Source: an archaeon (GTDB taxonomy: Archaea > Nanobdellota > Nanobdellia > Pacearchaeales > GW2011-AR1). From it: DNA of 55,915 nt. The stretch spans positions 80,559-136,473 of the forward strand of contig JABGRV010000006.1 of NCBI GenBank assembly GCA_018648095.1, given 5' to 3'. Position 1 is the stretch's first letter, and every line of letters starts with the position of its first letter. The notes under the pieces were generated by a model. The model had not been told where the DNA came from, did no database searches, and worked only from the letters and a program-made list of their open reading frames with translations. Both the position numbers and the translations under genes were made by a program. Below are positions 9,793 through 55,182 of the stretch, piece after piece.

Positions 9793-11544
9793 ATGAAAAG
9801 AGAGATGATGCAATTTATCTTGGATAATGAACTTTCCCCATTTAGCACTTCAAAATCCTACCTAAAACCCTCTAAAGATTCAATATTCAAAACACGTGAC
9901 GCGAAGGCAATCCATCAAAAAGTCCTCACAAAAATCTCATCTAACTTCAAATTCCCAGAAACCTCAAACATCTGGCACTACTTCCAATTTACAGATCAAA
10001 TACAAGAAATCCTTAGAAGACAATACTTTTTCAAACAACTAACTAAAGGAGACAACACCTTTCTAAGAAACCTCTCAAAACCAAGACAAACTTGGAGTCC
10101 AAAATACGAAATCATAATTGTTACAGAAGATGAATCAACATTTGTCCATCTAAAGAATCTAAGTTGCCCAGTTCAGCTCCTAGTTTCCGAAAGGGACGTT
10201 CAAGATCTAGAAAACTATGATATCGTTCAAGTAATCAACTGTGATGACTACAAACGGACCTTAGAGCAGCTCCCACAAACAGTTTTCATAGATTCTGTAG
10301 ATAATGTTTACCTTGAAAGATATCTCGAACTCTTGTCGGGATGGAAAGACAACTTCAACATAATAAAACAATCCAACCCCTCAGAAGAAGTCCAAACAAT
10401 TCTCAGAGAGCTAGAACCTCTATTCAATCTAATAGATAGCAAAATGGGAAAGATAATCTCAATAGAAGAAGTAGAGAAAGTCTTAGAAGATATAAATGAA
10501 AAAATATCAAACAAGGTAAAAGAACTAACAATCTCTGGAGATTCTCTTCTAAAAATGCTCAGCGAGGGTAAAATGCCTCCAACTTTCCAAAAAATAATCG
10601 AAGATTCAATAGAAGAGACCGGACTATCTCAACATATTTTCAATATAAAGATCCCTGTAGAAATAGATCAAAAGGAACTTGATGATCAAATAAAAAGACA
10701 GAGTGCAAACGAATTCACAAATCTCGCAGAAAACATAAAGCGACACGCAGAAAGCCTAAAGACAATTCCAATCAAGCTAAAAAAACTCTCCACACTTCTA
10801 CTAATCGAAGACTTCTGTCTTGGTGTAGCAAATTTCATCCAAGAAAACACAACCTTCCCAGCACATGCAGAACATCTCACATTCTCAAACGCATCAAACA
10901 TGTTTCTAGATAATGCTCAGCCAGTTAGCTTCAAACTCGACAATTTCCACAAGTGCTCAATACTTACAGGGGCTAATAGCGGTGGAAAGACAACTCTAAT
11001 CGAACATATTCTACAAAATATATCCCTATTCCAACTAGGACTTCCAATAAGGGGAGAAATCCAACTTCCAACCTTCTCAGAAGTATACTATTTCGCAAAG
11101 AACAAAGGCTCGGCAAGTAAGGGAGCATTTGAAACACTTCTAACCCAAATGTCAAAGATTCGCCCAGGAAATCAAACTCTAATCTTAGCCGACGAAATAG
11201 AATCCGTAACCGAACCGGGAGTAGCAGGTAAGATAATCGCTTCCACTGCAGAGTTCTTCATCAAGAAGAACTGTTTTATGGTCCTAGCAACCCATCTCGG
11301 CCATGAAATCAAGAAAACTCTTCCCAAGAACGCAAGAATCGATGGAATCGAAGCAAAAGGCCTCGACAGCAACTACAACCTAATCGTAGATCATAATCCC
11401 GTGTTAGGAAGGCTAGCTCATTCAACCCCCGAGTTAATCGTCGAAAGAATGGCCAACTCTAGTAGTGAAGAATACTTCAAACATTTACATGAGAATCTGA
11501 AGAAAAATGGGGACCAACCGCAGCAACCTCGGACTAATTATTAA
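9793..11544 (+). CDS. MutS2-like (MutS domain V) ABC ATPase protein
   Basis: C-terminal Walker A TGANSGGKTTLIEHI, followed by ILADEIESVTEPGVAGKIIASTAEFF (Walker B/D-loop typical of MutS domain V). The N-terminal ~380 aa could not be assigned. Confidence 0.6.
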   Translation: MKREMMQFILDNELSPFSTSKSYLKPSKDSIFKTRDAKAIHQKVLTKISSNFKFPETSNIWHYFQFTDQIQEILRRQYFFKQLTKGDNTFLRNLSKPRQTWSPKYEIIIVTEDESTFVHLKNLSCPVQLLVSERDVQDLENYDIVQVINCDDYKRTLEQLPQTVFIDSVDNVYLERYLELLSGWKDNFNIIKQSNPSEEVQTILRELEPLFNLIDSKMGKIISIEEVEKVLEDINEKISNKVKELTISGDSLLKMLSEGKMPPTFQKIIEDSIEETGLSQHIFNIKIPVEIDQKELDDQIKRQSANEFTNLAENIKRHAESLKTIPIKLKKLSTLLLIEDFCLGVANFIQENTTFPAHAEHLTFSNASNMFLDNAQPVSFKLDNFHKCSILTGANSGGKTTLIEHILQNISLFQLGLPIRGEIQLPTFSEVYYFAKNKGSASKGAFETLLTQMSKIRPGNQTLILADEIESVTEPGVAGKIIASTAEFFIKKNCFMVLATHLGHEIKKTLPKNARIDGIEAKGLDSNYNLIVDHNPVLGRLAHSTPELIVERMANSSSEEYFKHLHENLKKNGDQPQQPRTNY

Positions 11545-14955: not shown

Positions 14956-14988
14956 TCTTCAACCGCAGCAACCTGGGCCTAGTTATCT

Positions 14989-15363
14989 CTAAGCAACACA
15001 CATCATTCTAGAATTTGGAAGGGGTTGCTCAATTTTTTGAACCAAAATCGGACTTTTTTCAACAATTCTATTACGAATAACTAGATTGAAAGATAGTTTA
15101 ACTTGTAAAACGCCATCAATAAGTGAGGCTTCAAAATTCCATTCATTAACTTGTCTTAGGGCTATTTTGGGGATATTAAAGTACCTTGAAGCATCAAATA
15201 TCTGTAAGCCTACTACAAATCCTTCAGTGTCTAAATCAATAACATATCCTAGTAATTCCACAGAATGAGAATACTCTCTCCCATCTACCTTAAAAAAGAG
15301 AATATCATTTACCTGATCATAGTCTATTTTCCCGGATCCCTTTAATTTTCTAATTCCTTTCAT
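14989..15363 (-). CDS. DUF2283-like small protein (putative antitoxin-like partner)
   Basis: 124 aa. It overlaps the upstream ORF by 4 nt. The pairing and size match the DUF4258/DUF2283 two-gene module. Confidence 0.4.
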   Translation of the reverse strand: MKGIRKLKGSGKIDYDQVNDILFFKVDGREYSHSVELLGYVIDLDTEGFVVGLQIFDASRYFNIPKIALRQVNEWNFEASLIDGVLQVKLSFNLVIRNRIVEKSPILVQKIEQPLPNSRMMCVA

Positions 15364-15698
15364 TTTCCAACCTTCTCCTCCTGTTCCCTATTTAATATAT
15401 AGAAAGTAACTATATAAATCTTATTAGAAGATATTCTTATTAGGATCTTTATTTTTCTATTATTCTCAAAAAAATAAATAATTGCCAAATTATCATTCAT
15501 TTGCTTACATATTTCTATAGGCTCTTTCTCTATAATCATCTTCTTCAAAATATCCCCAGAGTATACCTTTCTTTGTTTTTCATTTAACCTAAATAATGCA
15601 TGGTCCGTTACCTCAATATCTTCAATATCAAATTTAGAAATCATAGAAGAGAATTTTTTCTTGCTTATCTTCTCATCTACGGAATGTTCGAAGACCAT
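15360..15698 (-). CDS. DUF4258-like small protein (putative toxin-like partner)
   Basis: 112 aa. GGAGG sits 4 nt before its ATG. Its start is embedded in the palindrome CCTCCAAGGTTGGAGG. Confidence 0.4.
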   Translation of the reverse strand: MVFEHSVDEKISKKKFSSMISKFDIEDIEVTDHALFRLNEKQRKVYSGDILKKMIIEKEPIEICKQMNDNLAIIYFFENNRKIKILIRISSNKIYIVTFYILNREQEEKVGK

Positions 15699-16453: not shown

Positions 16454-16485
16454 AGGTGACCACAATAACTAAGCAGTGGTCACCT
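16454..16485. repeat. inverted-repeat hairpin AGGTGACCAC-N12-GTGGTCACC (copy 1, downstream of Fic)
   Basis: A perfect 9-10-bp GC-rich inverted repeat. A near-identical copy is at 17426..17458. Confidence 0.7.
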
Positions 16486-17416
16486 ATTTCTTAGAAAGCT
16501 TTTTGATCCTCTTGTATTCTTTTATGATTAAATCTATTGATGGCCTTAAATTATTTTTATTCTCATATTCCTGGAGCGTTTCGTAGTATTCAAATCTATT
16601 TTTCAAACTAATATCTACCGGAGGCAACTTATTTTTTATTAAAATATTATTGAGGAGTAATCTCCCAACCCTTCCATTGCCATCTGCAAATGGGTGAATG
16701 TTTTCAAATTGATTATGAACGACAGTTGCTAAAATAAGTGCAGGATATTTTTTCTTATTTTTGGCATACCATTGAATTAATTTCCTCAAAAGATAAGAAA
16801 CCCTTTCCGGAGGTGCCCCATGATGAACAATCCTCCGATTTCCATCCATTATGACTACATCTTCACCTTCTTTTCTAAAATTACCCGCAAAGCTTTTTGA
16901 TTTCTTAAAAACAATTTTATGTAATTCTTTTATTAAGTCAATTGATAGATGATCTTTAGTTGATCTAATAAATTCTATTGCCTCGTTCACCCCATAAGTT
17001 TCCTCGACATCTTCTTTTGTGGCATCTTTTGGGGCAACATTATCTTCCAATATATTTTCAACTTCTCTTTCTGTTAATTGACTCCCTTCGATCGCATTGG
17101 TATTATAGGTAAATAATTCTGAGAACCTTTCCCATTGTGCCTTGGATAAGTGAACAACTTTTAGATTTTCTTTCTCTTGAAGATTTTTTATAAATTCAAT
17201 TTCTTCCTTACTCAGTTCAACTTTTAGTGGATCCTCTATGATCTTGTATAAATTAATCTCTTCTAAAATTAATCTCTTGGCAATCTCTTCTCTTTTATTA
17301 AGCTCTTTTTTAGAAAGGTTTTTTCCTAAAAATTTTCTAACTTTATTGACTTTGTTTCCTTCTCTAAAAGAATGAACAAGATATTGTTTCCCATCTTTTC
17401 TTTTTTCAATAAACAT
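16484..17416 (-). CDS. Fic/Doc family protein (AMPylase-type)
   Basis: Canonical Fic motif HPFADGNGRVGR (HPFx[DE]GNGR) in a 310-aa protein. Confidence 0.85.
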   Translation of the reverse strand: MFIEKRKDGKQYLVHSFREGNKVNKVRKFLGKNLSKKELNKREEIAKRLILEEINLYKIIEDPLKVELSKEEIEFIKNLQEKENLKVVHLSKAQWERFSELFTYNTNAIEGSQLTEREVENILEDNVAPKDATKEDVEETYGVNEAIEFIRSTKDHLSIDLIKELHKIVFKKSKSFAGNFRKEGEDVVIMDGNRRIVHHGAPPERVSYLLRKLIQWYAKNKKKYPALILATVVHNQFENIHPFADGNGRVGRLLLNNILIKNKLPPVDISLKNRFEYYETLQEYENKNNLRPSIDLIIKEYKRIKKLSKK

Positions 17417-17529: not shown

Positions 17530-18549
17530 ATGGTAAGAGTAAGATATTCATTCGGATCCAGGCATACTGGTCGAATTGCCAAAATTAAGAAACAGCGGAG
17601 CAAATATCCCGATGTTATGAAAGACGTAGTTAGAATCTCAGATATAATCCTAGAAGTCCTAGACGCAAGATACATCGAAGAGACCAGAAACATAACTGTA
17701 GAGGAAGATGTCCTAAGGAAGAAAAAACTTCTAATCTATGTCTTTAACAAAGTAGATCTAGTAGATAAAAAAGAGCTAGAAAAACAAATCCCACAGTGGA
17801 TGAAACCCTATGTCTTTACCTCTACAACCAAGGGAACAGGACTTAGAGATATCAAAAGCCGAATAAAGATGGAAGCTAAGAGAATCCTCGCAACAAGAAA
17901 GGATACCAAAGCCCCAAAAGAAGAAAAGAAGGGTAAATTTAGTGTCATTGAAGATAAAAAAGCCCGAGATAGAAAGGCCAAAAGAACAAAAGGTGAAATA
18001 GTCAAAGACCTCGGAGGCAAAAGGCGTATCCATGTTGGAGTAATTGGCTATCCCAATGCAGGTAAGAGCTCCGTAATCAATTTCATCACAAGAAGGGGTG
18101 CTGCCAAGACCGCAAAACAAGCAGGCTTCACCAAAGGTATGCAAAAGATCCGCCTATCAGAGGATATTCTTATTCTAGACACTCCCGGAGTAATCCCTGC
18201 AGATAAATACTCAACAGAAACAAAAAGCTTCGCAGCTGATGTCAAAGTAGGTGGCAGAACATACTCCGACGTAAAAGATCCCGAAGATGTAATTTATTAT
18301 CTAATGAACGCCCCAGCACCTAAAGATCCTAAGAAAATCACAGATAAAGAACAAGCCGTAATCGACGAAGCCGAAAAGAACTCCAAGATTATTGAAGGCT
18401 TCTATGGTATCGACGCTGAGGGAGACCCAGAGGTTTTAATCGAAGAACTCGGCAAAAAGAAAGGGTTCTTAGGTAAGGGCGGAAAGGTTGACATTGATCG
18501 GACTTCTAGGTTAGTGCTTAGGGATTGGCAAGAGGGTCGGATAAGATAA
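17530..18549 (+). CDS. circularly permuted GTPase (YlqF/RbgA/Nug1 family), ribosome-biogenesis type
   Basis: G-motif order G4-G1-G3: NKVDL ... GYPNAGKSSVIN ... DTPG. The start is moved to MVRVRYSF. The track ORF 17428..18549 begins inside the hairpin. Confidence 0.75.
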   Translation: MVRVRYSFGSRHTGRIAKIKKQRSKYPDVMKDVVRISDIILEVLDARYIEETRNITVEEDVLRKKKLLIYVFNKVDLVDKKELEKQIPQWMKPYVFTSTTKGTGLRDIKSRIKMEAKRILATRKDTKAPKEEKKGKFSVIEDKKARDRKAKRTKGEIVKDLGGKRRIHVGVIGYPNAGKSSVINFITRRGAAKTAKQAGFTKGMQKIRLSEDILILDTPGVIPADKYSTETKSFAADVKVGGRTYSDVKDPEDVIYYLMNAPAPKDPKKITDKEQAVIDEAEKNSKIIEGFYGIDAEGDPEVLIEELGKKKGFLGKGGKVDIDRTSRLVLRDWQEGRIR

Positions 18550-18550
18550 G
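18523..18550. repeat. 28-bp direct repeat, copy 1 (3' end of the GTPase gene, encodes ...DWQEGRIR*)
   Basis: GATTGGCAAGAGGGTCGGATAAGATAAG. It matches 19745..19772 at 26 of 28 positions. Confidence 0.75.
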
Positions 18551-18597
18551 AAATAGAGTATAATAATATTTATATATAATGGAATTTCATTAGGTTT

Positions 18598-19059
18598 ATG
18601 GATAAGGACTGGAACGCTGGTGATTCTGCAGAGAGGTTACTTAAAACTCTTGCTAGAGGTTGTGAGAAAAATCCGGTGTTTACAAGTGATAAGATGGAGG
18701 ATATTGCTCGTAGTTCTGGCGCAGGGCATTCTCTTTTGGCCCAGTATTTGTCGCCTAATGAAGAAAATCCTATTCCTTATTTGGGTTTGGGAATTCCAGA
18801 TAGTATTAACCGTGTTGATCCGTATGGTTTTAAATTGGTTGGTGATAGAAAGGTTTTTGATTTTTCACATTGTTCTGAATTAGAGTTAGTTCGGTTGGTT
18901 ACTCCTAATCATGCAATTTTTGAAGGATATCTTGAGAGAGTTAGAATATGGAATGCGTTGGATAAATCTGTCGAGTTTCATCCGGATGAAGTAGAAGCGA
19001 GAGAATATTTGATGGGGCGTTTTGGTGTGCCTAGGAACGATGTTAGGATGATAAGATAA
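18598..19059 (+). CDS. hypothetical protein (153 aa), visibly GC-richer than its surroundings
   Basis: ORF track. It lies within the segment bracketed by the 28-bp direct repeats. Confidence 0.4.
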   Translation: MDKDWNAGDSAERLLKTLARGCEKNPVFTSDKMEDIARSSGAGHSLLAQYLSPNEENPIPYLGLGIPDSINRVDPYGFKLVGDRKVFDFSHCSELELVRLVTPNHAIFEGYLERVRIWNALDKSVEFHPDEVEAREYLMGRFGVPRNDVRMIR

Positions 19060-19124
19060 TAGATATTACGGGTCCCCAGATTAGTGACAGAAAACACTAA
19101 AAACTCTACAACTCTAATAACGTA

Positions 19125-19595
19125 ATGAGGGATAGAAAAGAGTTTGATTATTATATATTTATCGACTTCTCTGAGAACCTTATTGGGTATAACATAATTG
19201 GAAAAGAGAAGGTTAAGGAATTACTTCCTAAGATTATTAAGTTGAAACATTACAGAAGTCTAAAGCATAAGAGGGAATACTTAAGGGCCATGAAGAAGTT
19301 ATTTACTAGAGAAAAAATTGATTCGTTCATATTGAAATCTAAAATAATTTCTATTAGGGATAATGTGGCAATTTTCACTGAAGTTTTGGAATTTGTCAAG
19401 AAAAATAAACATTGCATTATCTTCGTTTCTATTGATGATTTTCAGTTCAAACATTTTAAGAGACTTTTGAATGTTGTGGATGGGGGGAATACAGAGATAA
19501 TTCAAGAGAGCAAATTAAAAAATGGTACCCCCGAATATCAAATGAGTTTGATAATTGATACAATGCTTAATATTGAAAGACGAAAAGAGTATTAG
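19125..19595 (+). CDS. hypothetical protein (156 aa)
   Basis: ORF track. It lies within the repeat-bracketed segment. Confidence 0.4.
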   Translation: MRDRKEFDYYIFIDFSENLIGYNIIGKEKVKELLPKIIKLKHYRSLKHKREYLRAMKKLFTREKIDSFILKSKIISIRDNVAIFTEVLEFVKKNKHCIIFVSIDDFQFKHFKRLLNVVDGGNTEIIQESKLKNGTPEYQMSLIIDTMLNIERRKEY

Positions 19596-19744
19596 GGAGA
19601 ACAACGAATAATAGACTCGGGGACTCGTCAATCCTACTGGCGGCACAAAGACCGTCTTCGTCAGAGTCCTTTCATCTATATGTTTTAATTAGACGAATAG
19701 AATATAAAAATGTTTCGATTTTAGAGGAATTCACTAGGGGCAGA

Positions 19745-19772
19745 GATTGGCAAGAGGGCAGGATAAGATAAG
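19745..19772. repeat. 28-bp direct repeat, copy 2 (orphan duplicate of the GTPase 3' end)
   Basis: GATTGGCAAGAGGGCAGGATAAGATAAG. In frame it still encodes DWQEGRIR* but there is no gene upstream of it. Confidence 0.75.
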
Positions 19773-19803
19773 ATTTTATAAACCGCAATGAGTAACTAAT
19801 CAT

Positions 19804-20553
19804 ATGATTCCAAAGGTTAGAGTTGTTTTAGGTGAAGTAAAGGACTACCTTGGGATTCTTGAGTATTTTGTTCTATCTGATAATATGTTTAGGAAAGGGT
19901 GTTTATCCCAATATCCAAAATTTAAAGAAATTTTAAAGAAATCAAAAAATGAAAAGGAAGATTTGAGATTGTTTTTTGAAAGTTTTAATAAGAAAAATAA
20001 GAAAAAATTGCAGAAATTAGTTGAAAAGACAAAAAAAGCATGGGCCCCATTAAATAATAAAATAATGAAGGCATTCGAAGACTTACACCAAATTAAATGG
20101 ACAAAAAAACATTCAAATTTTACTGCGAGAATTACATTGTGTCCTGTTTGCCCGAGATATTTAGAATACAATGCTTTTGATGTTTATTATAGATTTAATG
20201 AAAAAAGAATCATTGATACATTTTTACATGAGCTTTCTCATTTTATCTTCTTTGAAAAATTAAAGAAAGTTTATCCCAAAATCAATTCTAAGGAATTTGA
20301 ACATCCGCATCTTATCTGGAAGATGAGTGAAGTTATGCCTGGGATAATTTTACAAGATAAAAAAATTCAAGAGATCTATAAGAATAAGGAAATTTCTGTT
20401 TATGATAACATTAAAAAAATAAAAATTGAGGGAAAATTACTTTTGGAGATCTTCCAAAAATTTTATGATGAACGAAATGATTTTGAGAGTTTCATAAAGA
20501 AATCCTATGGATTCATAAAGAAACATAAGAAAGAATTCGAGAGGCAGTTTTAA
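19804..20553 (+). CDS. hypothetical protein with an HExxH-like motif (FLHELSHFIFFE)
   Basis: ORF track (249 aa). A single HELSH motif suggests a possible zinc hydrolase, but this is weak. Confidence 0.4.
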   Translation: MIPKVRVVLGEVKDYLGILEYFVLSDNMFRKGCLSQYPKFKEILKKSKNEKEDLRLFFESFNKKNKKKLQKLVEKTKKAWAPLNNKIMKAFEDLHQIKWTKKHSNFTARITLCPVCPRYLEYNAFDVYYRFNEKRIIDTFLHELSHFIFFEKLKKVYPKINSKEFEHPHLIWKMSEVMPGIILQDKKIQEIYKNKEISVYDNIKKIKIEGKLLLEIFQKFYDERNDFESFIKKSYGFIKKHKKEFERQF

Positions 20554-20584
20554 GGTAAGACTTTATAGTATTTTGATAAGTATA

Positions 20585-22935: not shown

Positions 22936-23029
22936 AGCTTAAACTTCTTTAAAAACATTTCTGAAAATCTTCCAAAAGTTTTATGATGAATAAAAAGAAT
23001 TCGAAGAACAGTTTTAGATAATAATAAAA

Positions 23030-32601: not shown

Positions 32602-33666
32602 ATGTCAAAAGATAAACCGTATACAGTGGCTTCCTTTTTTAGTGGTTGTGGTGGTTTTGATCACGGTTTTGAGAAAAATGATTTCTCAGTTTTATTTGGG
32701 AATGATTCGTGGGAGGATGCTGCTACGACATTTAGGGCAAATTATCCGCAAGTTAAATTTTTTGAGAAACCAATTCAAGACATTACTGAAGAAGAATTAG
32801 CAGAGGTTACTAATAACATGCAAGTTGATGTATTAATTGGGGGGCCCCCTTGCCAGTGTTTCACGAGATTAAATAATAATCATCTGATTAAGTTATCTGA
32901 ACTAAAAAAAGAAGACAATAGAAGAACGCTGTCTCAAGAGTATATTAAAAAGGTTAAACTTCTAAAACCAAAGATAGTGTTGATGGAAAATGTAAGGGAC
33001 CTTCTACATAGGAAAAATCAGGAGGGGAAATTATATTCTGAAATAATTCGGGAGGCATTCAAGGAAATTGGATATGAAACTTACTGTAAAATTATCTCCA
33101 TGGATAAGTATGATGTTCCTCAAAAAAGAAAAAGAGTGATTTTTCTAGCCACTAATGTAAAAAGGTTAATGGAATTTCTTGATGAAAATGTTGATAATGG
33201 ATTCCCAAAGGAATCGAATAGGATAATCACTTCCGGAGAAGCCCTAGCTAAAATAAAAGATAATGAAAGTTTAAGTAACCACAATTTTACGATTAATGAA
33301 CCAGAAACTCTAGAGAAAATAAGGAATATCCCCCCAGGAGGTTATTACGAAGATTTACCAGACTCATTAAAAACAAAGAAAATTCGTAATGGGAAGGAAG
33401 TGATAGTAAAAAGATATGGCTCTTATTATCGGAGGTTACATCCGGATGAGCCTTCAAGAACAATAACAAATAATTACGTAATCCACCCAATCAAAGATAG
33501 ATATCTTTCAAATAGGGAAATGGCAATTTTACATAGCTTTCCAAAACAGTATAAATTTAAAGGAAACATGGGCTCAGTATCTCAACAAATTGCAAATGCT
33601 GTTCCGCCAAAATTTGCCGAAAAAATGGCAAAAAGAGTCCAATTTTTATTGGATAATTATTGTTAA
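32602..33666 (+). CDS. DNA (cytosine-5)-methyltransferase
   Basis: Motif I ASFFSGCGGFDHGF, motif IV GGPPCQCFT, motif VI ENV. Confidence 0.85.
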   Translation: MSKDKPYTVASFFSGCGGFDHGFEKNDFSVLFGNDSWEDAATTFRANYPQVKFFEKPIQDITEEELAEVTNNMQVDVLIGGPPCQCFTRLNNNHLIKLSELKKEDNRRTLSQEYIKKVKLLKPKIVLMENVRDLLHRKNQEGKLYSEIIREAFKEIGYETYCKIISMDKYDVPQKRKRVIFLATNVKRLMEFLDENVDNGFPKESNRIITSGEALAKIKDNESLSNHNFTINEPETLEKIRNIPPGGYYEDLPDSLKTKKIRNGKEVIVKRYGSYYRRLHPDEPSRTITNNYVIHPIKDRYLSNREMAILHSFPKQYKFKGNMGSVSQQIANAVPPKFAEKMAKRVQFLLDNYC

Positions 33667-33672
33667 CTTCAA

Positions 33673-34815
33673 ATGGTAGAAAAAAGTTACAAACTGGGAA
33701 AAGAATATATAGATAAGGGCAATCCCAAGTTTGATGAAGATCAATTCATGCGTTGGTTAAATATTAAGAATGTAAGTGGAATGATGAATTCTCCAGGAAT
33801 TCGGTGGTTAAATTATGCGAAGAAAAAAGATCTTCCTGCCGCAATAATATTAATTTCAAAAACTGCTAGCAGTTCATATCATAATCCTTGGGAGGATGTA
33901 ATCGATAGATTGGCAGGTAAGGCATATTACTGGGGGGATTCTAAATATGATCTAAAAAAATCTTGTGAAGACTTCATGGGAAATAAATTACTAAAAAAGG
34001 TCCACGTTAATCTTTTGGAGGGTAATCTTGATAAGATTCCGCCAATTTTACTTTTTTCAAAGCCAGTAAGTGGAAAAATCTTTTTTGAGGGATTGTGCGT
34101 GTTAGAAAATCTTGAAAGAACTTGGTTTGAGGATAAGGGTAAACCTGTTAGAAATTATCGTGCAATACTCCGGATATTGGATACTGAAAAGGTAAAAATT
34201 GAGTGGATACATAACAGAATATATGAAAAAGAATCCGATTCTCCAAGTGCTTGGAAGGACTATTCTTCTGGAAAAACACCCAAATATCTGAAGGTATGGA
34301 ATAAACGATTAAGATCCAAAAATGAACAATTACCTCCAATTAATTCCAATGATGATTTAATTCTAAAGAGAATAAATAGTTTATTATCCCGGGAGTTTGA
34401 GTTTTTTACAGTAAGACTTCTGGAATCTATAAAAGATATAAAGCATGAAATTGTAACTACTCGGGCAGTAAGGGATAAGGGGTTTGATTTCTTTGGGAGA
34501 TTTACATTGCCATACCCCCTAAAATATGAAATAAATTTTAAAGGAGAAGCTAAAAAGTTTGCAAGGTCTAGCGGAGTTGGACCTAAGGAATTATCTCGTT
34601 TAGCAGCAAAACTAACTCGTGGAGAATATGGGATATTCATCACCACATCGTATTATACATTACAAGCGCAGGAAGAATTATTTGAAGATGATTATCCAAT
34701 TAAGTTAATTAGCGGCAACGATATTATTAATTTTTTAAAAGAGTCAAGAATGATAAAGAATAATGCCCTATCTGAAAAAGATCTTTTTAAATTTTTGAAC
34801 CTTAAGCAAGAATGA
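33673..34815 (+). CDS. restriction endonuclease with an Mrr-type catalytic domain (cognate REase candidate)
   Basis: The C-terminus ...DKGFDFFGRF...GEAKKF...EYGIFITTSYYTLQAQEEL resembles the Mrr_cat fold. It lies 7 nt downstream of the C5-methyltransferase. Confidence 0.55.
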   Translation: MVEKSYKLGKEYIDKGNPKFDEDQFMRWLNIKNVSGMMNSPGIRWLNYAKKKDLPAAIILISKTASSSYHNPWEDVIDRLAGKAYYWGDSKYDLKKSCEDFMGNKLLKKVHVNLLEGNLDKIPPILLFSKPVSGKIFFEGLCVLENLERTWFEDKGKPVRNYRAILRILDTEKVKIEWIHNRIYEKESDSPSAWKDYSSGKTPKYLKVWNKRLRSKNEQLPPINSNDDLILKRINSLLSREFEFFTVRLLESIKDIKHEIVTTRAVRDKGFDFFGRFTLPYPLKYEINFKGEAKKFARSSGVGPKELSRLAAKLTRGEYGIFITTSYYTLQAQEELFEDDYPIKLISGNDIINFLKESRMIKNNALSEKDLFKFLNLKQE

Positions 34816-42096: not shown

Positions 42097-42921
42097 ATGA
42101 ACACAAACACCCCAACATCCCCAAATCCCCTAAACACAAACACCCCAACATCCCCAAATCCCCTAAACACAAACACCCCAACATCCCCAAAATCATCCCG
42201 CACAAACAACCCCTTAAACAAAAAAGAACGGGAAAACATCTTCGAGATATTCATAAAAAACAAAAAGATGAAGTTCACCGAGATCGAGAAGATGCTCGAC
42301 ATCAGATCTAACCTTCTGAATTATCATCTTAAGATAATGATTGAGGAAGGCTTGCTAGGAAAAGAAGAAGAAATGTACTGCCTTACGAAAGAAGGAGAGA
42401 AAATCATCCCATTCTATGCTCATTTGACAAACAAAGAGAAAGGTTCCCTAGTTATTTGTGCAGTTGCAATAAGACGTAGGGGAGAAATTTGCCTTCTAAA
42501 AAGAAACAAGAGACCTTATCAAGGATATTGGGGAATGATTGGAGGAAAAGTACGCCTAGAAGAATCAATTGAAGAAACTGCCGTTAGAGAAGCCCTTGAA
42601 GAAACAGGCCTAACATGCAAATTCAAGAAAGTAGCCTCAGTACTGCACGAAAGAGTCAAGGATTCTGGGACAGTTAAGCACAGTTTCATCATTTTTCTCT
42701 GCGAAGTCGAAGCAGAAACTGATGATTTAGTCGAAACTGAGGAAGGAGAAGTAAAATGGTTCCCAATAAACACCCTCCCAGAAAACATTATTCCCTCAGA
42801 TAGACTAATGATCGAAAAACTCCTCAAAACAAGAAAGTCAAATATAGGAAAAGTTATGATTGAAGAGGTAGAAGACGAACTAAAAAACTTGGAGTATGAA
42901 GAATATGGCAAAAGACTCTAA
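42097..42921 (+). CDS. winged-HTH (ArsR-like) plus NUDIX hydrolase fusion, with an N-terminal T/P/N-rich tandem repeat
   Basis: wHTH FTEIEKMLDIRSNLLNYHLKIMIEEGLL. Nudix box GGKVRLEESIEETAVREALEETGL. Confidence 0.65.
   Translation: MNTNTPTSPNPLNTNTPTSPNPLNTNTPTSPKSSRTNNPLNKKERENIFEIFIKNKKMKFTEIEKMLDIRSNLLNYHLKIMIEEGLLGKEEEMYCLTKEGEKIIPFYAHLTNKEKGSLVICAVAIRRRGEICLLKRNKRPYQGYWGMIGGKVRLEESIEETAVREALEETGLTCKFKKVASVLHERVKDSGTVKHSFIIFLCEVEAETDDLVETEEGEVKWFPINTLPENIIPSDRLMIEKLLKTRKSNIGKVMIEEVEDELKNLEYEEYGKRL
42100..42198 (+). repeat. 33-bp tandem repeat x3 (AACACAAACACCCCAACATCCCCAAATCCCCTA), coding NTNTPTSPNPL x3
   Basis: Copies 1 and 2 are identical and copy 3 is degenerate. The repeat lies at the 5' end of the wHTH-NUDIX ORF. 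Confidence 0.8.
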
Positions 42922-49721: not shown

Positions 49722-49784
49722 TCAAACCTTCACCAACCCCTTCGGGAAATAAACATACTTATACTCTTCATAAGCAATCAACAT
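49722..49784 (-). pseudogene. orphan 3' fragment of an lrp-like gene (encodes MLIAYEEYKYVYFPKGLVKV*), part of the 48-bp direct repeat
   Basis: Near-identical at the DNA level to the true lrp 3' end at 54187..54234. Nothing lrp-like lies upstream of it. Confidence 0.6.
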
Positions 49785-49805
49785 TAAATAGGCACGAAAA
49801 ACAAT

Positions 49806-50771
49806 CTAATACTTATCCAATATCCCCAATAGATAATCATAAGATTTATTTGTTTGTTTTAACATGAATTGATAATATTTTTTCTTTCGCCCATCTCTTG
49901 CCGAAGCTATTGCATTGAAATATGATTCTTTGTTCTCTTTATGAACGATTATTGGGGGATACCCATTTTGAATCAATATCTTATTTAGGATTAATCTTCC
50001 AGTTCTTCCATTTGCATCTCTGAATGGGTGAATTCTTTCATATTCCAGATGAAAATCATATGCTAATATTAGGGGGTGAATTTTCTTTTTATTTTTCTTA
50101 TACCATTTAATCAATTCTTCCAGTTCTCTTTTGACATCTTTTGGATCGCTCGTTGGAGAGTTACCAACAACTAAATCCACTGTTTTAAATCCTCGGGGAT
50201 AGGGGTTTCTATTATCCATTAGCAATTTTTTAGTTAAAATATAATACAATCTTTTGATTGACTCCAGATTAAAATTAAAATCCTTTAGATATTCAAAGGC
50301 ATCTATTGAATTCAGTGCTTCACGTGCCTCATTTTTGTTTTTATAGCCTAGATTACCGGTTTCTATAATTTTTTTAACTGCCTGTTCAGGGATTTTTGAC
50401 CCCTCAATATTATTAGAATTAAAAATAAATTTAATTGCAAAATCTGTTTCGACAGATTTCGGATGTTTCTTTATCTCCTTTAAATTGTTTATCTTAATTG
50501 CTTTTTCTTCTATTTTTTCGGGAAGATTGCCATCATAAGATAATTCTTTATTAATTGATTTTAAAAAACCTAACTTGAAATTTAATTCTTCTTTTGTAAT
50601 TTTATCCAAATTTTCTAAAAGATGCTTTTCCTTAGTAATTGCTGAGGTCCCCTTTCCGATGTGTTCTTTGTATACAAATTTTTTACCCATAAAAGTAGAT
50701 TTTTTTACAAATTTAAGATAAGTATGCCCCTTAACTTCCACCTTATCAATCGAACTCATATAAATTATCAA
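49806..50771 (-). CDS. Fic/Doc family protein (second paralog)
   Basis: Fic motif HPFRDANGRTGR. It has the same overall layout as the Fic at 16484..17416. Confidence 0.8.
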   Translation of the reverse strand: MIIYMSSIDKVEVKGHTYLKFVKKSTFMGKKFVYKEHIGKGTSAITKEKHLLENLDKITKEELNFKLGFLKSINKELSYDGNLPEKIEEKAIKINNLKEIKKHPKSVETDFAIKFIFNSNNIEGSKIPEQAVKKIIETGNLGYKNKNEAREALNSIDAFEYLKDFNFNLESIKRLYYILTKKLLMDNRNPYPRGFKTVDLVVGNSPTSDPKDVKRELEELIKWYKKNKKKIHPLILAYDFHLEYERIHPFRDANGRTGRLILNKILIQNGYPPIIVHKENKESYFNAIASARDGRKKKYYQFMLKQTNKSYDYLLGILDKY

Positions 50772-52743: not shown

Positions 52744-52988
52744 TGGCCAAAAAGAAAAAAACCGGTGAAATAATGGGACATGAGATAGATCCTTCAAAAA
52801 TAAAAAATCCACATATCCGAAGAGCAATTAAGCAACGAGGCGGATTTTTATTTTGGTATCGTGAAAATAAAAACTATTGCGAAGGAGGATATCAACCAAC
52901 CCGCTGGCATACAGAACATACGGAAAGTGGAGCATATACTGAACAATATAGACATAATGAACACTGTGATGCAAACGACTACAGGTAG
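52743..52988 (+). CDS. small peptide A (81 aa; candidate precursor/substrate peptide of the radical SAM enzyme)
   Basis: Its ATG overlaps the radical SAM stop (TAATG). The core EIMGHEIDPSKIKNPHIRRAIKQRGGFLF is shared with peptide B. The C-terminus is Y/H/E/C-rich. Confidence 0.5.
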   Translation: MAKKKKTGEIMGHEIDPSKIKNPHIRRAIKQRGGFLFWYRENKNYCEGGYQPTRWHTEHTESGAYTEQYRHNEHCDANDYR

Positions 52989-52999
52989 TTATTAACAAA

Positions 53000-53209
53000 A
53001 TGAAAAACGAAAAAAGATTACCCGATAAATGTGAAATAATGGGACATCAAATAAGTTTAACAGATATCGAAAATCCACATATCCGAAGAGCAATTAAGCA
53101 ACGAGGCGGATTTTTATTTAAATATAAGGAAGTGGAAGACTACGATGATTTACCCCATCCACACTATCAAGCATACGATGATTCAGATGATTATCCGGAC
53201 ATGGATTAA
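53000..53209 (+). CDS. small peptide B (69 aa; paralog of peptide A)
   Basis: EIMGHQISLTDIENPHIRRAIKQRGGFLF, with a 48-nt stretch identical to peptide A. The C-terminus is acidic and Tyr/His-rich: DYDDLPHPHYQAYDDSDDYPDMD. Confidence 0.5.
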   Translation: MKNEKRLPDKCEIMGHQISLTDIENPHIRRAIKQRGGFLFKYKEVEDYDDLPHPHYQAYDDSDDYPDMD

Positions 53210-53256
53210 AGATATAATAAGGGCTCCTTGATTAACTTAATCCCCTGGCCTTTTTC

Positions 53257-54168: not shown

Positions 54169-55182
54169 TTAAGGGTTTCCAACAAGCCCCTTCGGGAAAT
54201 AAACATACTTATACTCTTCATATGCAATCAGCATTTCATATCTGTTCAACTGCTTAGGAAACAATCCTCTCAACTTCAAGATCGTCTCCTGTAAATCCGC
54301 AACATCCTTGACCAATAGGTAGATCAAAACATTATATCTCCCAATAGTCTTAACTGCCCAAAGCGTATTACGATCTTTATCCAAGAAACTCTTCAACTTA
54401 TTCTCTTTCTCCGCATCGAACCCATCGATATTCAACAAGAAGGTGTATAAACTATAACCAAGCGAGATATAATTAATCGCAGGGATAAACTTGATGATCA
54501 CTCCTGATGCAATCATGTTCTTTATCCTATAACTAACAGCGTCGGCAGAAAGCCCAACTTTCCCCCCGATCTCAAACAAAGGAGTCTGAGCTTCTTCTCC
54601 CAAAATATCCAAGATTTTAATATCAACTCCATCCAACTTACCACGACTACCCCCAACAACATCCTTCTTCATTGGAGCCAACCCAGAAAAATTAGGTGGA
54701 AAAGTCTCCGCAACATAATTCTTTGAGATCGCCAGAACTTCATAATCCTGGATCATCCCATTACAATCTGATAGAACCTTCCCTAAAACATCATCCAAAC
54801 CAGAAACACCCTTAGCCACCAATGCAATCTCCAAATCAAAGTTCCCACTGAACTTCAAGATCGCCCTAATAAATGGCCGCTTCACCAACTTAGCAACAAC
54901 CTTCTTTTCAGCTTCAGAAGATGGATTATTCAACTTAATGAACAGATGATAATTGTCATAGCCAAATTTTCCAATATTCACAATCGTTCTATAACCCTGA
55001 ATAACTCCCTTATCCTCAAACCCCTTAATTCTATAGCTCACAGCATCCCTAGAAAGCCCCACCTTCTTAGAAATCTGGGTGAGTGGCATCCTAGCATCAG
55101 TAGAAAGAAGTGAAACAATCTTCTTATCCTTCACATCAAGCTTAACCTGCTTAACCTTTCCATTCTTCTGTAAGTATCTCAT
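54169..55182 (-). CDS. tandem-duplicated Lrp/AsnC-family transcriptional regulator (two HTH+RAM units)
   Basis: Two repeats of ...KIVSLLSTDARMPLTQISKKVGLSRDAVSYRIK... / ...KILDILGEEAQTPLFEIGGKVGLSADAVSYRIK..., each followed by a RAM-like region. Confidence 0.75.
   Translation of the reverse strand: MRYLQKNGKVKQVKLDVKDKKIVSLLSTDARMPLTQISKKVGLSRDAVSYRIKGFEDKGVIQGYRTIVNIGKFGYDNYHLFIKLNNPSSEAEKKVVAKLVKRPFIRAILKFSGNFDLEIALVAKGVSGLDDVLGKVLSDCNGMIQDYEVLAISKNYVAETFPPNFSGLAPMKKDVVGGSRGKLDGVDIKILDILGEEAQTPLFEIGGKVGLSADAVSYRIKNMIASGVIIKFIPAINYISLGYSLYTFLLNIDGFDAEKENKLKSFLDKDRNTLWAVKTIGRYNVLIYLLVKDVADLQETILKLRGLFPKQLNRYEMLIAYEEYKYVYFPKGLVGNP

Follow-up and report, generated by a model that had tools for sequence, protein, structure and literature searches.

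Archaeal integrative elements are known to settle in the 3'-distal parts of protein genes, and the attachment (att) repeats that flank them in crenarchaea measure 29–69 bp (PMC6563490). We analyzed a stretch of 55,915 nucleotides (the window; positions 80,559 to 136,473 of contig JABGRV010000006.1, GenBank assembly GCA_018648095.1) from an archaeon of the Pacearchaeales lineage GW2011-AR1, in which the end of a gene for a circularly permuted GTPase occurs twice. The two copies bracket 1,190 bp (1.19 kb) that hold two open reading frames (ORFs), ORF1 and ORF2, and a predicted small RNA gene; ORF2 and the RNA form the core of a cassette that is met in many related archaea. Two further kinds of known system bear on the locus. 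Single crossovers of the Campbell type have been described chiefly for the integration of suicide vectors in the laboratory and for elements that depend on an integrase, and we know of no natural, recombinase-free integration of this type with just 20–70 bp of homology. Toxin-antitoxin systems of type I (convergent, with 3' overlap) and type III are modules with RNA antitoxins. An earlier note on this DNA had read the locus as the product of integration, which is right in outline and wrong in detail. As a whole, the copies are probably the scars of a cassette insertion, accompanied by duplication, at the tail of the GTPase gene, and the main interest lies in the undescribed cassette of a predicted nuclease plus an RNA and in the genome-wide pattern of recombinase-free insertion-duplication.

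Results

The GTPase Gene End Is Duplicated

The sequences GATTGGCAAGAGGGTCGGATAAGATAAG at 18523-18550 and GATTGGCAAGAGGGCAGGATAAGATAAG at 19745-19772 are identical at 26 of 28 positions (2 mismatches), exactly as first described, and the match extends 3 nt upstream (AGG/AGA, an Arg codon) and 1 nt downstream, to 29/32 (Table 1). The working GTPase ORF ends within copy 1 (...LRDWQEGRIR*, stop codon 18547-18549); copy 2 reads in frame as RDWQEGRIR* with nothing GTPase-like upstream of it. All three mismatches (AGG/AGA, GGT/GGC, and CGG/AGG) are synonymous in the GTPase frame. Chance similarity or faulty assembly might have been invoked, and the 3' part of the repeat (ATAAGATAA) is indeed of low complexity, 11-mers of this kind arising by chance. 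However, none of 100 dinucleotide-preserving shuffles gave a second 28-mer with three or fewer mismatches (the chance expectation is none), the match is in frame with only synonymous changes, and both copies with the same gene order are present in at least three independent assemblies (JGI 3300004109, ENA ERZ4200966, and ENA ERZ23491424). Because these carry the two copies in an identical arrangement, an assembly artefact is ruled out; chance and artefact are refuted.

The target gene is, judged by its translation, a ribosome-assembly GTPase of the YlqF/RbgA-like kind. Motif G4 (NKVD) precedes G1 (GYPNAGKS), which is the circularly permuted order, and NCBIfam model TIGR03596 (YlqF) matches with E=4.7e-37; since the score of 127.9 is under the curated cutoff of 208, we call the protein YlqF-like rather than an equivalog. 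Nearly all 120 homologues listed keep the C-terminal LRDWQ motif. The closest of these, at ≤78% identity, belong to metagenome-assembled genomes of Nanoarchaeota, Pacearchaeota, and Woesearchaeota. Gene order around the GTPase differed in all relatives examined (71 species genomes and four further contexts), and the only genome with shared neighbours was L007, the closest species representative (GTPase 75% identical), which is syntenic with window positions 6.5–9.4 kb. An empty site in related genomes, proposed in the earlier note as a check on integration, was not found in these 71 genomes and four contexts, because gene order around the GTPase differs in every one of them. All contigs with identical proteins showed the same filled arrangement, with no empty version among them (the species-level population occurs in more than 48 sample blocks), and searches with the reconstructed empty sites of ten loci returned no spanning match.

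Duplicated ends of GTPase genes were also observed in three unrelated DPANN lineages. In L061 (10673-11482) the same GTPase has a 53-nt tail duplication around a PIN toxin and a small antitoxin-like ORF; in L013 (5802-6190) two in-frame GTPase tails lie 324 nt apart (duplication of ~66 nt), and although the DNA of the two copies differs by ~35%, each encodes ...RDWQEG.IK*; in L021 (10001-10430) a 5' GTPase fragment is located 309 nt upstream of the GTPase gene. At the other end of the gene, NUDIX and GTPase are adjacent in L169 (5478-6041), separated by an ORF2+RNA cassette in L007 (8908-10040), and separated in L168 (5235-6010) by a methyltransferase gene that starts with the same ATGGTAAGAG as the GTPase. 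Since its contents vary in this way, the NUDIX-GTPase junction seems, from the sequences compared, to be a recurrent entry point.

Contents of the Insert

The two ORFs had been described as unrelated hypothetical genes; one is in fact an orphan and the other the hallmark of a large and conserved family of cassettes that have a partner RNA. No real homologue of ORF1 was found, 1.84 billion representatives giving just short-motif matches to repeat proteins, and its single-sequence AlphaFold model is uninformative because the predicted local distance difference test score (pLDDT) is 41. The sequence AATAGAGTATAATAATATTTATATATAATGG belongs to ORF1, and upstream of the gene lies TTTATATATA, which we take to be TATA-like by the archaeal TATA consensus and thus a putative promoter. 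Neither ORF1 nor ORF2 matched Pfam, PHROG, PADLOC, or NCBIfam families. A search against mobile-element and defence libraries, also suggested earlier, was negative for both, as were searches of phages, plasmids, and viral contigs. By composition, the insert does not stand out as alien. The GC content of ORF1 is 0.39, against a gene mean of 0.357 (standard deviation [SD] 0.042), its A-T skew is 2.4 SD off the gene mean (T>A), and ORF2 is slightly AT-rich; as composition and codon usage of both ORFs fall inside the range of the window, they are not diagnostic. Both GC-richer patches noticed earlier are real (ORF1, 0.39; 19.6–19.7 kb, 0.48), but the latter corresponds to the RNA gene and not to DNA of foreign composition.

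ORF2 is predicted to adopt an RNase H fold rather than that of an integrase, and the family to which it belongs, spread over Pacearchaeota, Woesearchaeota, and Nanoarchaeota, numbers about 400 protein clusters. Both the fold and the candidate acidic residues that an RNase H-fold transposase would need are present in a single domain of 156 amino acids; to our knowledge, this is smaller than any known transposase. ORF2 has no promoter of its own, and its ATG usually lies 0–22 nt after, or overlaps, a stop or start codon of the host gene.

The RNA is convergent with ORF2. Its covariance model, R1, finds a single copy in the window, and its length is ~75–105 nt across the family. In an alignment of 76 sequences, the invariant strands CUGACGAA and AGUAGG.U.GA.G are flanked by helices in which compensatory GC/AU/CG exchanges occur, P2 being 99.7% and P3 97.9% paired. 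The covariation score was 0.54, compared with 0.27 in shuffles, none of 500 shuffles reached the observed value, and slid controls gave 0.07–0.15. On the minus strand, at a fixed distance of ~23 nt from the RNA, relatives conserve the motif CCGAAA...TTTWWATA, which by archaeal consensus we take to be a transcription factor B recognition element (BRE) plus TATA box. The RNA was assigned to this strand because of the BRE-like CCGAAA motif, and the same strand is favored by more than 60 G-U pairs that would be A-C mismatches on the ORF2 strand. Given the covarying helices and the conserved BRE/TATA, we therefore interpret the GC-rich patch at 19.6–19.7 kb as a small RNA gene.

The invariant loop of the RNA resembles a tandem G-A plus loop-E motif. 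No Rfam family matched the RNA at the gathering threshold, the sole Rfam hit of the window being a tRNA-Val; the best hit in the region, sR44, reached 7.5 bits, where the gathering score is 45. An assignment to the C/D-box small RNAs, for which the resemblance is just these 7.5 bits, conflicts with the covarying P3 helix and was rejected, as were, by eye, a hammerhead, an H/ACA RNA (there is no ACA box), and a K-turn. A role as target guide was likewise set aside, no cognate complementarity being found (mean score 6.8 for cognate and 7.0 for non-cognate pairs). On the sequences at hand, the family is undescribed and very well conserved, with about 76 distinct members. Two RNA subtypes were distinguished (L094, L095, L110, L115, L118, L130, L137, and L149), 5'-AUAGAUGAAAGGACUC... 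and 5'-AUAGGGGAACGCGACC..., which are often in tandem; sometimes a solo RNA occurs without ORF2, and some P3 helices have a 10–30-nt extension containing GAUGAUG.

A Cassette Family Bracketed by Gene Ends

The cassette core occupies approximately 19086-19741 of the window, the family unit being roughly 0.6–0.7 kb. Homology to L077 detected by blastn runs from 19086 to 19721 at 85% identity, and DNA conservation with relatives reaches ~125 nt beyond the ORF2 stop. The RNA motif was found just downstream of an ORF2 homologue in nearly all of ~80 metagenome loci, and the cassette is common in Pacearchaeota, Woesearchaeota, and Nanoarchaeota. For the 64 loci with sufficient flank, we compared the sequence just past the RNA promoter with that preceding ORF2. 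The local repeat score was ≥17 in 16 loci, the null maximum being 16, and after removal of tandem arrays about 12 of the 64 had true flanking repeats of 20–55 bp (21, 29, 30, 32, 35, 42, 47, 51, 52, and 53 nt). These repeats are ends of adjacent host genes and are unrelated in sequence between loci; in addition to those of Table 1, matches of 50/52 (L133) and 46/47 (L135) were obtained. Repeat spacing is mostly 613–743 nt, equivalent to the cassette alone. Three loci have extra cargo between the left repeat and ORF2, namely the window (ORF1), L135 (a 102-amino-acid orphan), and L133 (a ParE-type toxin pair), and the cargo ORFs of these three loci and of L077 share no homology. L133 and L135 show a clear partial third repeat copy between cargo and cassette, which fits two successive entries at one gene end. 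The window has just a 10-nt candidate, with p ~0.06 within the insert and no significance across the whole window, so a third copy at the ORF1 3' end is a weak possibility.

The ten repeat-defined inserts lack terminal inverted repeats and any shared terminal motif. The edges of the cassette are fairly constant (left, 0–22 nt before the ORF2 ATG; right, 0–40 nt past the RNA promoter), homology between cassettes stopping near the ORF2 ATG and ~80–125 nt (mostly 115–125) past the stop, and the same cassette at 91–98% nucleotide identity is found in different flanks. One relocation could be followed. In L087, L122, and L086 the order is g97-cassette-g813; in L091 it is geneA-cassette-30-bp relic of geneA-g204-g97, with a fresh repeat at the derived site only. 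In L089, a cassette with 92% identity to those of L086 and L087 lies elsewhere, with a 51-bp repeat. In relatives, cassettes tend to stay in the same neighbourhood. The cassette is low-copy (2 matches in 1.09 Mb of DPANN loci, about 1–3 per genome), and phages, plasmids, and viral contigs essentially lack it, with one partial RNA match in 0.88 Mb of viral contigs.

Other Bracketed Blocks

Four blocks bracketed by gene-end repeats are present in the window (Table 1). The repeat of the MutS block matches at 24/27 positions, with non-synonymous differences, and its relic lies just after the TrmB gene; the block contains genes for a 310-amino-acid ORF, a pyridine-nucleotide oxidoreductase, NAD synthase, and TrmB. 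In the ORF3 block, the tail ...IFQKFYDE...KEFERQF* is followed downstream by a copy, ...IFQKFYDE*KEFEEQF*, with a 57-nt internal deletion, and the cargo is three minus-strand genes (a 51-amino-acid membrane peptide, a 150-amino-acid secreted protein, and an M64-like peptidase). The relic of the lrp block encodes MLIAYEEYKYVYFPKGLV, identical to the Lrp/AsnC tail, with DNA differences that are all synonymous in that stretch; beyond it the relic diverges to its own stop, and the differences of the pair overall are mostly synonymous. This insert carries genes for a Cys-rich membrane protein, a radical SAM/SPASM protein, dCMP deaminase, and Fic. A motif common to two of the window repeats (GATTG...AAGAG) was judged to be chance.

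In 1.02 Mb of other DPANN loci, 28 direct and 3 inverted repeats of 24–150 nt with 0.3–6 kb spacing were counted, the direct set including some paralogue or intragenic repeats. Bracketed cassettes there include a PIN toxin (L061) and Fic (L025); a ParE toxin cassette is found in L133, one of the ORF2+RNA cassette loci. In the 24 repeat pairs that overlap long ORFs, 37 codon differences were synonymous and 29 non-synonymous, where 14 synonymous were expected (p ~1e-9), a total that includes some paralogue repeats. The broader claim of the earlier note, recurrent integration of cassettes at the 3' ends of housekeeping genes, thus stands insofar as repeats bracket inserted DNA and the pattern recurs, in four blocks of the window and in many DPANN loci. 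It does not hold for the choice of gene end, as 5' ends are used too (L117, L131, L025, and L021), nor is there an integrase or transposase in the insert or, by Pfam, among the proteins scanned in the 56-kb window.

Several other features of the window were recorded. Directly after the radical SAM/SPASM gene of the lrp insert, at 52744-53210, two paralogous small ORFs (~80 and ~70 amino acids) share a perfect 50-nt core (52804-52853 and 53070-53119, ...NPHIRRAIKQRGGFLF...) and resemble the precursor peptides encoded in modified-peptide clusters. Two Fic paralogues, at 16484-17416 and 49806-50771, are ~71% identical over 163 nt, one adjoining the GTPase and the other lying inside the lrp insert; the Fic gene of L025, 61% identical in protein, is bracketed by 70-nt repeats. 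A DUF2283/MJ0788-like gene pair at 14989-15698 looks toxin-antitoxin-like, and at 32602-34815 a C5 cytosine methylase lies beside an AspBHI/Mrr-like restriction endonuclease; these add to the content of a defence or selfish kind. At the start of the ORF at 42097-42921, positions 42100-42198 hold three copies of a C-rich 33-nt unit (AACACAAACACCCCAACATCCCCAAATCCCCTA).

Table 1. Features of the insertion locus, of comparable cassette loci, and of the other bracketed blocks. Positions are those of the window unless another locus is named.
Feature	Position	Strand	Description
GTPase gene (target)	17530..18549	+	Circularly permuted, YlqF/RbgA-type, 339 aa; Pfam MMR_HSR1 E=4.7e-18
Direct repeat copy 1	18520..18551	+	Last 9 codons, stop, and 2 nt of the working GTPase gene
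TATA-like box, TTTATATATA	18569..18578	+	Putative ORF1 promoter, ~20 nt upstream of ORF1 ATG
ORF1	18598..19059	+	153 aa, orphan cassette gene; finds only itself among 5.8 billion clusters
Possible decayed middle repeat copy, TGATAAGATAA	19049..19059	+	10-nt exact match; supplies ORF1 stop codon; weak
Cassette leader	19086..19124	+	Homologous to cassette of L077, the closest relative
ORF2	19125..19595	+	156 aa, predicted RNase H fold, cassette hallmark gene; candidate DEDD residues D14/E89/D104/D145
Structured small RNA gene (predicted)	19605..19681	-	Convergent with ORF2; covariance model R1, 71.8 bits, E=2.5e-17
Putative RNA promoter, BRE (CGAAAC) + TATA (ATTTTTATAT)	19702..19717	-	~23 nt upstream of RNA 5' helix
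Direct repeat copy 2	19742..19773	+	Probable displaced relic of GTPase 3' end (RDWQEGRIR*)
ORF3	19804..20553	+	249 aa, HExxH motif, weak WLM/SprT-like match (Pfam WLM E=0.0043, below cutoff)
MutS block	11515-11541 / 14960-14986		Tail (last 9 codons) of 583-aa MutS-V/AAA-like ORF 9793-11544; brackets 3.4 kb
ORF3 block	20433-20556 / 22951-23020		ORF3 3' end duplicated; brackets 2.5 kb
lrp block	54182-54240 / 49732-49790		Lrp/AsnC tail duplicated; brackets 4.4 kb
L091 repeat	Last 30 nt of 626-aa gene		29/30, sole difference synonymous
L089 repeat	Last 51 nt of 1308-aa gene		47/51
L117 repeat	First 53 nt of glycosyltransferase-like gene		53/53; TGA of truncated leader ORF overlaps ORF2 ATG
L131 repeat	5' end + promoter of minus-strand gene		42/42

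Discussion

Mechanism of Insertion

That DNA was inserted and the gene end duplicated is well supported; the way in which this happened, and the order of the two insertions (ORF1 and the core), we infer. The 1,190 bp would have been joined into the last ten codons of the GTPase gene, whose end is now double, the upstream copy completing a working GTPase and the downstream copy being a relic before ORF3. ORF3 is presumably the gene that followed the GTPase before the insertion, and the empty site would have run from the GTPase tail directly into TTTTATAAACCGCAATGAG. The inserted DNA would consist of small selfish cassettes, the ORF2+RNA core plus ORF1 as a second, orphan cassette at the same junction. 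We hold, tentatively and short of calling it probable, that the most likely mechanism is a homology-driven crossover of the Campbell type. Circular DNA with a short copy of the same gene end would have come from a related strain, where the cassette had looped out between flanking repeats or a fragment had circularized, and a single crossover with the chromosomal gene end would have needed no dedicated recombinase. Insertions that leave one intact gene copy would survive, and the short repeats would be stable.

We favor this route because one boundary of the repeats lies at a stop or start codon, where homology between donor and recipient would end, while the other varies. Relative to the stop codon, the boundary is at +2 nt in the window and at 0 in L091, L061, and L013; relative to the start codon of L117 it is at -1. 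The route is also favored because the copies differ as two functional alleles would, the diverged L013 tails with the same peptide being what donor and recipient alleles would give, because the route can carry cargo of any kind and would leave partial copies through accretion, and because neither a recombinase nor element termini are present.

On the other hand, several observations weigh against it. Just 13–14 perfectly matched bases lie either side of the central mismatch pair, which is short for recombination, and neither an empty site nor a circular junction was found for this locus. Homology by itself cannot explain the first arrival of a cassette beside a new gene, and the cassette tightly abuts many different genes; several pairs have their left edge 0–10 nt from the ORF2 ATG, which is more what a defined mobile unit would show. 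In several cases the two repeat copies do not differ at all (53/53 and 42/42), as expected of fresh target duplications. The synonymous bias could also arise after insertion, if allelic recombination refreshed either copy, and the excess of direct over inverted repeats stems in part from intragenic and paralogue repeats.

Some of these points suit the main rival, transposition with a long target-site duplication, which we consider unlikely. ORF2 and the RNA, autonomous or mobilized in trans, would enter staggered breaks 20–70 bp apart, and fill-in repair would duplicate the target; ORF1 would have entered later likewise, and the synonymous differences would be due to later allelic recombination. 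This would account for a first arrival next to new genes and agrees with the rather constant cassette edges (0–22 nt before the ATG; 0–40 nt past the promoter), the identical repeats at several loci, the same cassette at 91–98% identity in different flanks, the local hop with loss from the old site (L091 compared with L087/L122/L086), and an ORF2 with the RNase H/DEDD fold of transposases and resolvases. It does not agree with the absence of terminal inverted repeats and conserved termini, with a repeat length that varies about three-fold, unlike in known DDE/DEDD elements, or with a repeat boundary that tracks start or stop codons. Moreover, cassette-free blocks are bracketed likewise (lrp, MutS-like, ORF3, PIN, ParE, and Fic), the RNA shows no target complementarity (6.8 cognate, 7.0 non-cognate), and there are just ~1–3 cassette copies per genome (2 matches in 1.09 Mb).

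Two further schemes are less likely still. If the cassette was ancestrally upstream of the GTPase, as in L007, a tandem doubling of [cassette-GTPase] followed by deletion of the first cassette and most of the second GTPase would leave the 32-bp relic. L007, with its 75% identical GTPase and partial synteny, does have an ORF2 homologue and RNA directly upstream of the GTPase start, cassettes tend to remain in the same neighbourhood in relatives, and gene order is highly shuffled in the group. Since the L007 cassette is of the other RNA/protein subtype (47% identity), however, it is not the orthologue of that in the window; the scheme needs three events with breakpoints 0–2 nt from stop or start codons, repeatedly (L091, L089, and L061), no relic of the deleted first cassette is seen upstream of the GTPase, and the PIN, ParE, and Fic cassettes and the synonymous divergence of L013 are left unexplained, making it improbable. 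We give even less credence to classical site-specific integration, in which the GTPase 3' end would be attB and the repeats attL and attR of a tyrosine or serine recombinase element, or of a remnant mobilized in trans. Entry into 3'-distal gene parts has its archaeal precedent, with crenarchaeal att of 29–69 bp (PMC6563490), and direct repeats from the target gene end do bracket the insert here, include the stop codon, and reconstitute the gene. The integrase route nevertheless fails because there is no recombinase and no shared att core: Pfam detects no recombinase in the 1.2-kb insert or the 56-kb window, the insert ORFs have no PHROGs, PADLOC, or NCBIfam match, ORF2 has an RNase H fold and not that of an integrase, and members of the cassette family have a different repeat at each locus. 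As both sequence and length (about 20–70 bp) differ at every locus, the repeats are not a fixed att site, and no association with viral contigs or plasmids was seen.

Function and Significance of the Cassette

By analogy, the ORF2+RNA arrangement would most resemble an addiction module of nuclease plus RNA, that is, one of toxin-antitoxin type; it may alternatively be a housekeeping ribonucleoprotein or an autonomous element. The layout is that of RNA-antitoxin modules, with a putative toxin gene and an adjacent small RNA that has its own BRE/TATA promoter, and the promoter-less gene of the predicted nuclease would be coupled to host translation. In its mode of movement the cassette is like those of PIN, ParE, and Fic. 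ORF2 matched none of the PADLOC and Pfam toxin or defence families, and we know of no toxin of its RNase H-fold family. It is possible, though we would not put it more strongly, that the cassettes are a new class of selfish ribonucleoprotein cassette, either a new toxin-antitoxin system, in which a structured RNA would restrain an RNase H-fold DEDD nuclease, or an autonomous mobile element with long target-site duplications of variable length, travelling as passengers of a recombinase-free insertion-duplication that erodes gene order.

If so, insertion-duplication would continually reshuffle small cassettes into gene ends and drive the extreme loss of gene order in reduced genomes. The density is high: the 56-kb window has four blocks, and other DPANN loci have ~27 short direct repeats per Mb. 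Were the route general, it would help to explain why shared gene order is nearly absent among DPANN genomes at ~75% protein identity, and it would explain the spread of toxin-antitoxin, Fic, and orphan genes among them. Archaeal elements in gene tails with flanking repeats are a known theme, which appears here at small scale, recombinase-free, and with repeats unique to each site. In addition, an undescribed RNA family is coupled one-to-one to an uncharacterized RNase H-fold protein family in hundreds of uncultivated archaea.

Comparison with Known Systems

With archaeal integrative elements the locus shares entry into protein-gene tails (including those of GTPase and AsnC/Lrp genes), direct repeats of tens of bp, and a reconstituted gene end. 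Those elements, however, are multi-kb, encode an integrase or casposase, and have a fixed att site or target duplication, whereas the present inserts are 0.3–4 kb, have no recombinase, and are flanked by repeats whose sequence and length are site-specific. Classical insertion sequence (IS)/DDE transposons have terminal inverted repeats or conserved termini and a short target duplication of fixed length, features that are absent here. IS110 elements with their bridge RNA (PMC11208160) resemble the cassette in having a DEDD RNase H/RuvC-fold protein beside a structured RNA with conserved internal loops, and no terminal inverted repeats. ORF2, though, is a single domain of 156 amino acids without the second (Tnp, catalytic Ser) domain of the IS110 recombinase (PMC11208160), its RNA is convergent at the 3' side with family-invariant loops and no target complementarity, and the repeats on either side are long and vary. 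Duplications of the target that differ in length are also a trait of non-long terminal repeat (non-LTR) retroelements, but the insert contains no reverse transcriptase domain. Compared with archaeal RNase HII (12% identity over 119 aligned residues), ORF2 is ~60 residues shorter, has no Pfam RNase HII match, often occurs in 2–3 copies, and is partnered by an RNA.

Two other groups share features with the locus. Like RNA-antitoxin modules (type I with convergent 3' overlap, and type III), the cassette combines a small gene for a predicted nuclease with a separately promoted small RNA and is low-copy, patchy, and mobile between contexts, here beside PIN and ParE cassettes in similar brackets; its RNA, unlike type I or III antitoxins, is a single covarying hairpin-with-loops rather than a repeat array or simple antisense RNA. 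In Campbell-type insertion-duplication and in cis-mobilizable elements, one crossover of a circle carrying a gene end duplicates a segment and keeps one gene intact, which is the arrangement seen at the GTPase gene, and cis-mobilizable elements flanked by att-like repeats likewise show tandem accretion at the same site.

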